Source of the DNA: Escherichia coli | Lineage (GTDB): Bacteria; Pseudomonadota; Gammaproteobacteria; Enterobacterales; Enterobacteriaceae | Assembly: GCF_009931435.1 (NCBI RefSeq) | Contig: NZ_CP043414.1 | Length of the DNA: 64,000 nucleotides | Reading direction: 5' to 3' (one strand) | Part shown: positions 48,490 to 49,063 of the stretch, piece by piece | How positions within the stretch are numbered: the stretch's first letter is position 1 | How the letters are laid out: each line of letters starts with the position of its first letter | Program-made: the position numbers and the translations under genes | The notes under the pieces: generated by a model | Databases searched by the model: none | What the model was told of the DNA's origin: nothing | Seen by the model: only the letters and a program-made list of their open reading frames with translations

Positions 48490-48550
48490 AATAAAATCTC
48501 AAACGCCCCGCGTTGCGGAGTCAATAAAATGAAGTAAAGGTTTATTGTTG

Positions 48551-49063
48551 TTAGCTGAGGCGTTGAGGGCCAGCACGGATGCCTTGCGCCTGGCTTATCC
48601 AGACGGGCGTGCTGAATTTTGCTTGTGGGGTAAAATGCGCATAATCAATGCGATAACCCTTTTCAGACGGCGTGCCTTCCTGGGTCAACAGCGCGCTGAG
48701 CGTATCCAGTAATGCAAGATGTTGCGCCTGAAGAGGCAAAGATTCTTCAGCAACGGGCAGCGTTTGCGGTGCCATTGCGAAGGAAAGATGACGGATTACC
48801 GTGCGAATGGCATGTTGATGCCAGTAATCAACGGAATAGTTCGAATTCGGGCGGCGCGTGTTCGCTTCCAGCATGGCCAATTGACCAAAGTTAACTTTGG
48901 CTGAAGGCTCGTGGTTGCGGGTTGTCGCTTTTGCGGGCGCGTTTGGTTCGGCGGCGTTGCTGAGCGCAGGCAAACCTAAACTCGCCGCGACCATCCCTAA
49001 TAAGAGATGCGGCCAGAAGTAGCGTTTACCAAACTGTCGCCAGCGCGTCAGTATTCCACTCAC
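48551..49063 (-). CDS. secM: Secretion monitor (SecM) arrest peptide regulating secA
   Basis: 170 aa from (V/M)[34 protein letters not shown]; GTG start; C-terminal arrest motif [17 protein letters not shown]. Confidence 0.9.
48566..48616 (-). other. SecM ribosome-stalling motif (FxxxxWIxxxxGIRAGP) coding segment
   Basis: Encodes [17 protein letters not shown] at residues 150-166 of secM, 4 codons before the stop. Confidence 0.85.

Follow-up and report, generated by a model that had tools for sequence, protein, structure and literature searches.

Introduction

The secM-secA pair of Escherichia coli K-12 is a close known counterpart of the locus studied here. SecM carries an arrest motif, which has been defined as FxxxxWIxxxxGIRAGP (PMC10987492, PMC10951299), and in the arrested ribosome the Gly165-tRNA is held in the P site and the Pro166-tRNA in the A site (PMC10951299). 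In the mRNA, a stem-loop hides the secA Shine-Dalgarno sequence until it is disrupted by the stalled ribosome (PMC10987492). Arrest of the nascent chain, release by the export machinery and a stem-loop hiding a downstream Shine-Dalgarno sequence are features that the present locus has in common with VemP-secDF2 of Vibrio and MifM-yidC2 of Bacillus (PMC10987492).

In the present study, we followed up a first-pass annotation of a window of 64,000 nucleotides of E. coli DNA (contig NZ_CP043414.1), the window being the whole stretch that was analysed. All of the secM and secA features described below lie on its minus strand. The locus agrees with secM (b0097)-secA (b0098) of K-12 MG1655 in position, orientation and neighbours, with lpxC upstream and mutT downstream. 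The first-pass annotation had called the secM arrest peptide and the secM-secA coupling region intact, and this was borne out, since all elements that can be tested on the sequence are present, namely the family match, the motif, the signal sequence, the adjoining secA and a predicted helix. The identity of the gene, the intact motif, the genomic arrangement and the predicted helix, together with its overlap with the ribosome footprint, were all found in this analysis. We assign a probability of about 0.92 to the reading that the locus is a canonical, intact and presumably functional E. coli secM-secA translational control unit. The system is an already known one in its normal place, thus ordinary, and its significance beyond annotation is small: the genome carries a normal secretion-monitor circuit.

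Results

The secM coding sequence occupies 48551..49063. By reading of the minus strand and by the list of open reading frames, it begins with a GTG codon at 49063..49061, runs for 170 codons and ends with a TAA stop at 48553..48551. The GTG aligns base for base with the start of the K-12 annotation b0097, and since the NCBIfam profile also begins at residue 3, the GTG is taken as the true start, as had been proposed. A longer frame opening at TTG 49216 was considered as the start of secM and rejected, being merely an in-frame upstream extension where the GTG matches b0097. [quoted passage not shown] The product scored 195.6 bits against Pfam PF06558 (SecM; E=5.3e-58, cut-off 25) and 231.7 bits against the NCBIfam equivalog NF002799 (cut-off 100), which covered residues 3-169. 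The protein is SecM of the long type, with 168/170 residues identical to K-12 SecM. Codons 1-37 (48953..49063) are what we take to be the Sec signal sequence, its extent being that known for K-12 SecM and its signal function being known from the literature; residues 1-63, the signal sequence included, equal residues 1-63 of the K-12 protein in the alignment.

A 681-nt query covering the locus was present in 5424/5426 complete E. coli genomes, with one match each and with the annotation always reading secM/secA. The identity was 95-99% in 4183 genomes and at least 99% in 1241, and two of the 5426 genomes gave no match to this query. Three of about 5420 matches fell on records that carry a plasmid label. 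These records and the two genomes without a match are probably explained by replicons that were mislabelled or split and by gaps in the assemblies. Around secM the gene order is ftsA, ftsZ, lpxC, secM, secA, mutT, yacG, zapD and coaE, as is normal for the 2-minute region of E. coli.

One part of this neighbourhood is unusually divergent for E. coli. Between 45000 and 47650, a stretch covering secA codons ~280-901, mutT and the mutT-yacG spacer, the identity to K-12 was 92-96% and fell to 86% at 45201..45400, whereas the flanks, secM among them, showed 98-100%. A 711-nt piece (46950..47660) had only 90-95% identity to 5336/5424 genomes and reached at least 99% in just two, for example strain 2013C-4282. 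The changes are almost all synonymous, because the SecA protein is still identical to that of K-12 at 899/901 residues. Judged by these identities, the stretch looks like an imported recombinant patch; no locus of the compared Escherichia species matched it better than about 90-97%. Strain 2017-02-2CC showed near-identity to the window over ~1.7 kb around secM, with one mismatch between 49705 and 48010, and about 5% divergence over about 670 nt in distal secA.

The arrest motif, Phe150 to Pro166, was placed at 48566..48616 by counting codons back from the stop, exactly where the first-pass annotation had put it, and it occupies the same residues as in K-12. In the protein alignment it was 100% identical to the K-12 motif without any substitution; mutations within FxxxxWIxxxxGIRAGP, which had been named as the observation that would speak against the annotation, were thus absent relative to K-12. 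The codons at the stall site were read as Gly165 at 48571..48569 and Pro166 at 48568..48566, their occupancy of the P and A sites being taken from the literature. Behind the motif, a tail of Q167, R168, L169 and S170 followed by TAA was read at 48551..48565, and four codons past the motif were found in every one of 83 Enterobacteriaceae sequences. A degenerate DNA pattern for the motif had a single occurrence in the window, and 100 dinucleotide-preserving shuffles contained none. When about 100,000 species genomes (298 Gb) were scanned with it, 86 loci matched, of which 85 were readable, the scan requiring an intact motif, so that motif variation in nature lies outside its reach. The readable loci comprised 84 SecM-like tails adjoining secA and one chance match (Glaciimonas, L076). 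In this allele, stalling at Gly165/Pro166 and release by Sec-dependent pulling presumably take place as in K-12, given the identical motif (PMC10951299, PMC10987492).

Directly downstream of secM and on the same strand lies secA, its regulated target, which is annotated in this way in 5424 E. coli genomes. Its coding sequence (45784..48489) has 901 codons in the list of open reading frames and starts with ATG at 48489..48487. A Shine-Dalgarno-like GAGA is found 8 nt before the AUG, at 48497..48500, and is invariant in 83/83 aligned sequences. The spacer between the two genes measures 61 nt (48490..48550) by reading of the minus strand; in 83 other species its length ranged over 55-68 nt with a mode of 61.

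Minimum-free-energy and partition-function folds predicted a long-range helix over the secA Shine-Dalgarno sequence, and it appeared in both the minimum-free-energy and the centroid structures. Its 5' arm (48554..48567) consists of CUCAACGCCUC at 48567..48557, which runs from the second base of the Pro166 codon through Leu169, and of the GC of the Ser170 codon (48555..48554). The 3' arm (48498..48511) reads GC-GGGGCG-(U bulge)-UUGAG, with base-pair probabilities of 0.66-1.0. CUCAACGCCUC pairs with the GGGGCG-(U bulge)-UUGAG portion (48509..48498), and in this allele the helix is extended by pairing of the Ser170 GC with GC at 48511..48510. In free RNA, the GAG of the Shine-Dalgarno sequence was paired with a probability of at least 0.99, its probability of being unpaired being 0.00-0.01. 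An 87-nt segment folded at -17.4 kcal/mol (z=-2.20; 4/200 shuffles as low). The 151-nt segment 48620..48470, which was folded following the suggestion to fold 48480..48620, gave -40.4 kcal/mol (z=-2.91; 0/200 shuffles as low), with the predicted helix over the Shine-Dalgarno sequence and a hairpin within the arrest-motif codons that is described below.

Counted from the first base of the Gly165 codon in the P site, the 5' arm extends from +4 to +14/+17 nt. A ribosome protects roughly +15 nt, so a stalled ribosome and the helix would be mutually exclusive; by this geometry, the footprint of a ribosome that stalls while Pro166 is in the A site would cover the 5' arm. The first-pass annotation had ascribed to the spacer, whose length of 61 bp (48550..48490) it gave exactly, a helix that holds the secA ribosome binding site and is opened by the stalled ribosome. 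The pairing of the Shine-Dalgarno sequence and the overlap with the footprint agree with this in the models, but the 5' arm belongs to secM codons 166-170 and not to the spacer.

For the stalled state, the opening cost of the secA initiation region (-15..+13) was computed on no more than the RNA lying 3' of a ribosome that holds Gly165 in its P site. Without the covered RNA, it was 4.2 instead of 8.1 kcal/mol here and 4.6 instead of 8.0 kcal/mol in K-12; in the models the change has the expected direction, and both alleles behave alike. A model that merely forbade pairs of the covered bases was discarded as unrealistic, the upstream RNA pairing in it across the ribosome with the secA region. 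The mean probability of the Shine-Dalgarno bases being unpaired hardly shifted between the states (0.22 to 0.31), and this measure was uninformative, with weak AU-rich alternative pairings; such weak pairing of the initiation region is still permitted by the models after removal of the 5' arm. Rfam covariance models gave no match with E<=1 on either strand of 48300..49400, and scanning for promoters and terminators yielded no signal beyond chance level.

The helix was compared over an alignment of 83 sequences, made up of the window, K-12 and 81 other Enterobacteriaceae. In this alignment, 88.0% of cells were paired versus 31.6-52.1% when the partners were slid by 1-3 columns. The covariation score was 0.120 against 0.126+-0.004 in shuffles, a value reached by 443/500 of them, and RNAalifold on MAFFT alignments did not recover the helix. 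Because its arms are also constrained by the coding sequence and by the ribosome binding site, the conserved pairing is weak and merely permissive evidence. Partition functions computed for each species gave a probability of pairing between the Shine-Dalgarno sequence and the secM tail above 0.5 in 51/83 and above 0.8 in 38/83.

The choice of codons in the secM tail was also examined. CAA, CTC and CCT are non-preferred codons in E. coli. In the tail, Gln was encoded by CAA in 65/70 cases, Leu by CTC in 66/83 (by CTG in only 4) and Pro by CCT in 56/83, each of these being the codon that is complementary to the secA initiation region. In Entomohabitans, a CAG is paired with CUG, a compensatory change from A-U to G-C. 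In a divergent clade (L008, L029, L042 and L078), the tail is CUCCGUCUU (residues LRLG/FRLG/LRLS) and the spacer reads ...CCGUAAAGACGGAAGUAUUUGAGAA. The tails of this clade bind their own region upstream of the Shine-Dalgarno sequence at a mean of -11.8 kcal/mol, and foreign tails bind it at -6.7 to -8.0 kcal/mol. They are complementary to the 3' strand of a local hairpin described below, ~6 nt further from the Shine-Dalgarno sequence, with a predicted Shine-Dalgarno-tail pairing of ~0; on these predictions, the coupling in these genera may work differently. Together, the codon choice and the two lineage-specific compensations lean in favour of the long-range helix. For a helix so well known, the statistical covariation support from comparative sequences is surprisingly small, and its case lies mainly in published experiments, in the bias of codon choice and in these two compensatory changes.

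Two further observations concern the same part of the transcript. Inside the codons of the arrest motif, at 48570..48615, an accessory hairpin was predicted (-23.0 kcal/mol, z=-3.16) with the sequence CAGCACGCCCGUCUGG-AUAAG-CCAGGCG...GUGCUG. Over 81 distinct Enterobacteriaceae sequences, 77.8% of its cells were paired versus 28-44% when slid, and its covariation score was 0.227 versus 0.208+-0.006, reached by 1/500 shuffles. This hairpin may correspond to a helix already described in the 1990s. The second observation is a secM-secA spacer of 183 nt, versus the 55-68 nt seen elsewhere, at L062:706-888, on a contig labelled Citrobacter freundii M-21 whose SecM resembles Atlantibacter. It contains about 125 extra bases with an internal inverted repeat (cttactgaagtaag), which is reminiscent of ERIC/IRU repeat elements, and keeps the conserved secA initiation region. 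With this long spacer, nature offers a test of how important the distance from the secM tail to the secA ribosome binding site is.

Discussion

The spacer can also form a local hairpin, CUCCGC-AAC-GCGGGG (48506..48520 in the folds), which is a rival of the long-range helix for the G-rich strand. This suggests a wider competition among three strands, in which the secM tail and the spacer strand CUCCGC (48520..48515) would vie for the G-rich strand at 48511..48504 beside the Shine-Dalgarno sequence. Stalling would then lead to the local hairpin, and the hairpin itself, or a protein recognising it (for example SecA in an autoregulation), would set secA initiation. We consider this joint proposal rather unlikely as an account of the locus. 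What speaks for it is that a hairpin directly 5' of GCGUUUGAGA was predicted in almost all genera, with stems specific to each clade (CUCCGC/GCGGGG, UGCCC/GGGCG, CUUCGC/GCGAGG, CUCCGA/UCGGGG and CCGU/ACGG), that it folds once the RNA covered by the ribosome is removed and that, in the divergent clade of L008, the hairpin's 3' strand, and not the Shine-Dalgarno sequence, is the pairing partner of the tail. Its pairing was 79.7% versus 74.0+-1.1 in shuffles (0/500 reached it) and its double-change cells numbered 13 versus 6.8+-2.3 (6/500 reached it), which places its comparative support somewhat above that of the long-range helix; this support is nevertheless modest, as 5-25% of unconstrained alignments give such shuffle counts. 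RNAalifold on MAFFT alignments did not recover the local hairpin, and the column-wise tests understate it because its register shifts between clades. The z-scores of the local folds were weak (median -1.07), and in the window sequence the long-range helix does take in the Shine-Dalgarno sequence at the pairing probability given above.

The local hairpin appears to covary among genera, and the long-range helix is without covariation and goes unpredicted in about a third of the sequences; for these reasons one could argue that the textbook helix which buries the Shine-Dalgarno sequence is only the Escherichia/Citrobacter/Klebsiella version of a general competition between tail and spacer strand for the G-rich strand. 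We hold this general design to be doubtful. If it were true, what stalling governs would really be whether the local hairpin forms, and direct sequestration of the Shine-Dalgarno sequence might have no part in secA regulation in some genera. The competition is compatible with the textbook model and possibly part of it; more than one helix was reportedly described by McNicholas in 1997.

Within the canonical reading, the differences from K-12 have to be weighed. Besides several synonymous changes, the alignments showed two amino-acid changes in secM, L64M and T170S, and in the spacer a single substitution, G at 48522 where K-12 has A. The alignment with K-12 secM that had been proposed as a check confirmed the terminal Ser in place of Thr, and it also revealed L64M, which had been overlooked. 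Codon 64 (48872..48874) is ATG, for Met, where K-12 has TTG, for Leu. This allele is rare, an exact 35-mer being found in 1/5426 complete E. coli genomes, that of strain 2017-02-2CC from Viet Nam. To our knowledge, no function has been ascribed to residue 64 of SecM.

Codon 170 (48554..48556) is AGC, for Ser, where K-12 has ACC, for Thr. An exact 61-mer with AGC at its centre occurred in 2292 E. coli genomes, that is, at least 42%, and the K-12 61-mer with ACC in 2898, and therefore both alleles are common. In the 83 Enterobacteriaceae sequences, residue 170 was Ser in 76 (AGC in 71, AGT in 5) and Thr in K-12 alone, from which Ser170 appears as the family consensus and the Thr170 of K-12 as the derived state. 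The earlier view of Ser170 as a minor difference outside the arrest motif was right, and the finding that Ser is the consensus makes it stronger. K-12 is thus less suited as a reference for the tail of SecM, its Thr170 being the exception where Ser is the rule.

One could suppose that Met64, Ser170 or the spacer substitution alters the strength of arrest or coupling, so that secA would be regulated here unlike in K-12. The AGC of codon 170 contributes two further predicted G-C pairs, with a gain of 3.8 kcal/mol in the stability of the local fold (-17.4 vs -13.6 kcal/mol in K-12), and the extreme rarity of Met64 could be read in the same sense. Against this, residue 170 lies outside the motif and is translated only once the arrest has been released, its Ser is both the consensus and widespread among E. 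coli genomes, the opening cost of the secA initiation region in free RNA is equal to that of K-12, and the exchange of Leu for Met is conservative. We regard such an effect as very improbable: L64M, T170S and the spacer base are harmless natural variants, none of which falls within an element of known importance. That the motif and the helix are a chance resemblance, or that secM is a decayed remnant, can practically be dismissed, being already refuted by the conservation of the locus, the Pfam and NCBIfam scores, the near-identity of a full-length frame to K-12 and the pattern count (expected 0.00 times in window shuffles, with 84/85 readable loci across 298 Gb adjoining secA).

For the arrest itself, its release by export and the repression of secA by the helix, we rely on the literature, and the canonical unit would then work in the following way. 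SecM would be synthesised with its N-terminal Sec signal sequence until Gly165 occupies the P site and Pro166 the A site; at that point, the FxxxxWIxxxxGIRAGP segment of the nascent chain in the exit tunnel would block peptide-bond formation and stall the ribosome. As long as no ribosome is stalled, the final codons of secM (CUCAACGCCUC, here with the GC of Ser170) would pair with GGGGCG-U-UUGAG and bury the GAG of the secA Shine-Dalgarno sequence. A stalled ribosome would cover the 5' arm, by which the secA initiation region would be freed and SecA made. An active Sec translocon would pull on the signal sequence of SecM and release the stall; poor secretion would mean a longer stall and more SecA.

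In comparison with the known systems, the window shares with K-12 MG1655 the GTG start, the 170 codons, the arrest motif, the 61-nt spacer, the secA initiation region and the predicted helix, and differs from it in L64M, T170S (ACC to AGC), the spacer base at 48522 and 2/901 residues of SecA. The best match was the SecM of E. coli strain 2017-02-2CC (WP_039021823.1), a protein 100% identical to that of the window, Met64 and Ser170 included; at the DNA level, the two differ by one mismatch in 681 nt, which is synonymous (Pro146, CCA vs CCG). The short SecM of Pasteurellaceae (PF10818 SecM_small; NF038363) is likewise an arrest peptide upstream of secA with a signal sequence, but the window protein stays below the cut-offs of that class, with 21 vs 26.1 bits for PF10818 and 26.1 vs 45 bits for NF038363, and belongs to the long class. 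VemP-secDF2 and MifM-yidC2, for all their likeness in principle, have unrelated sequences, other arrest motifs and other targets, and are not homologous to the secM-secA unit of the window.
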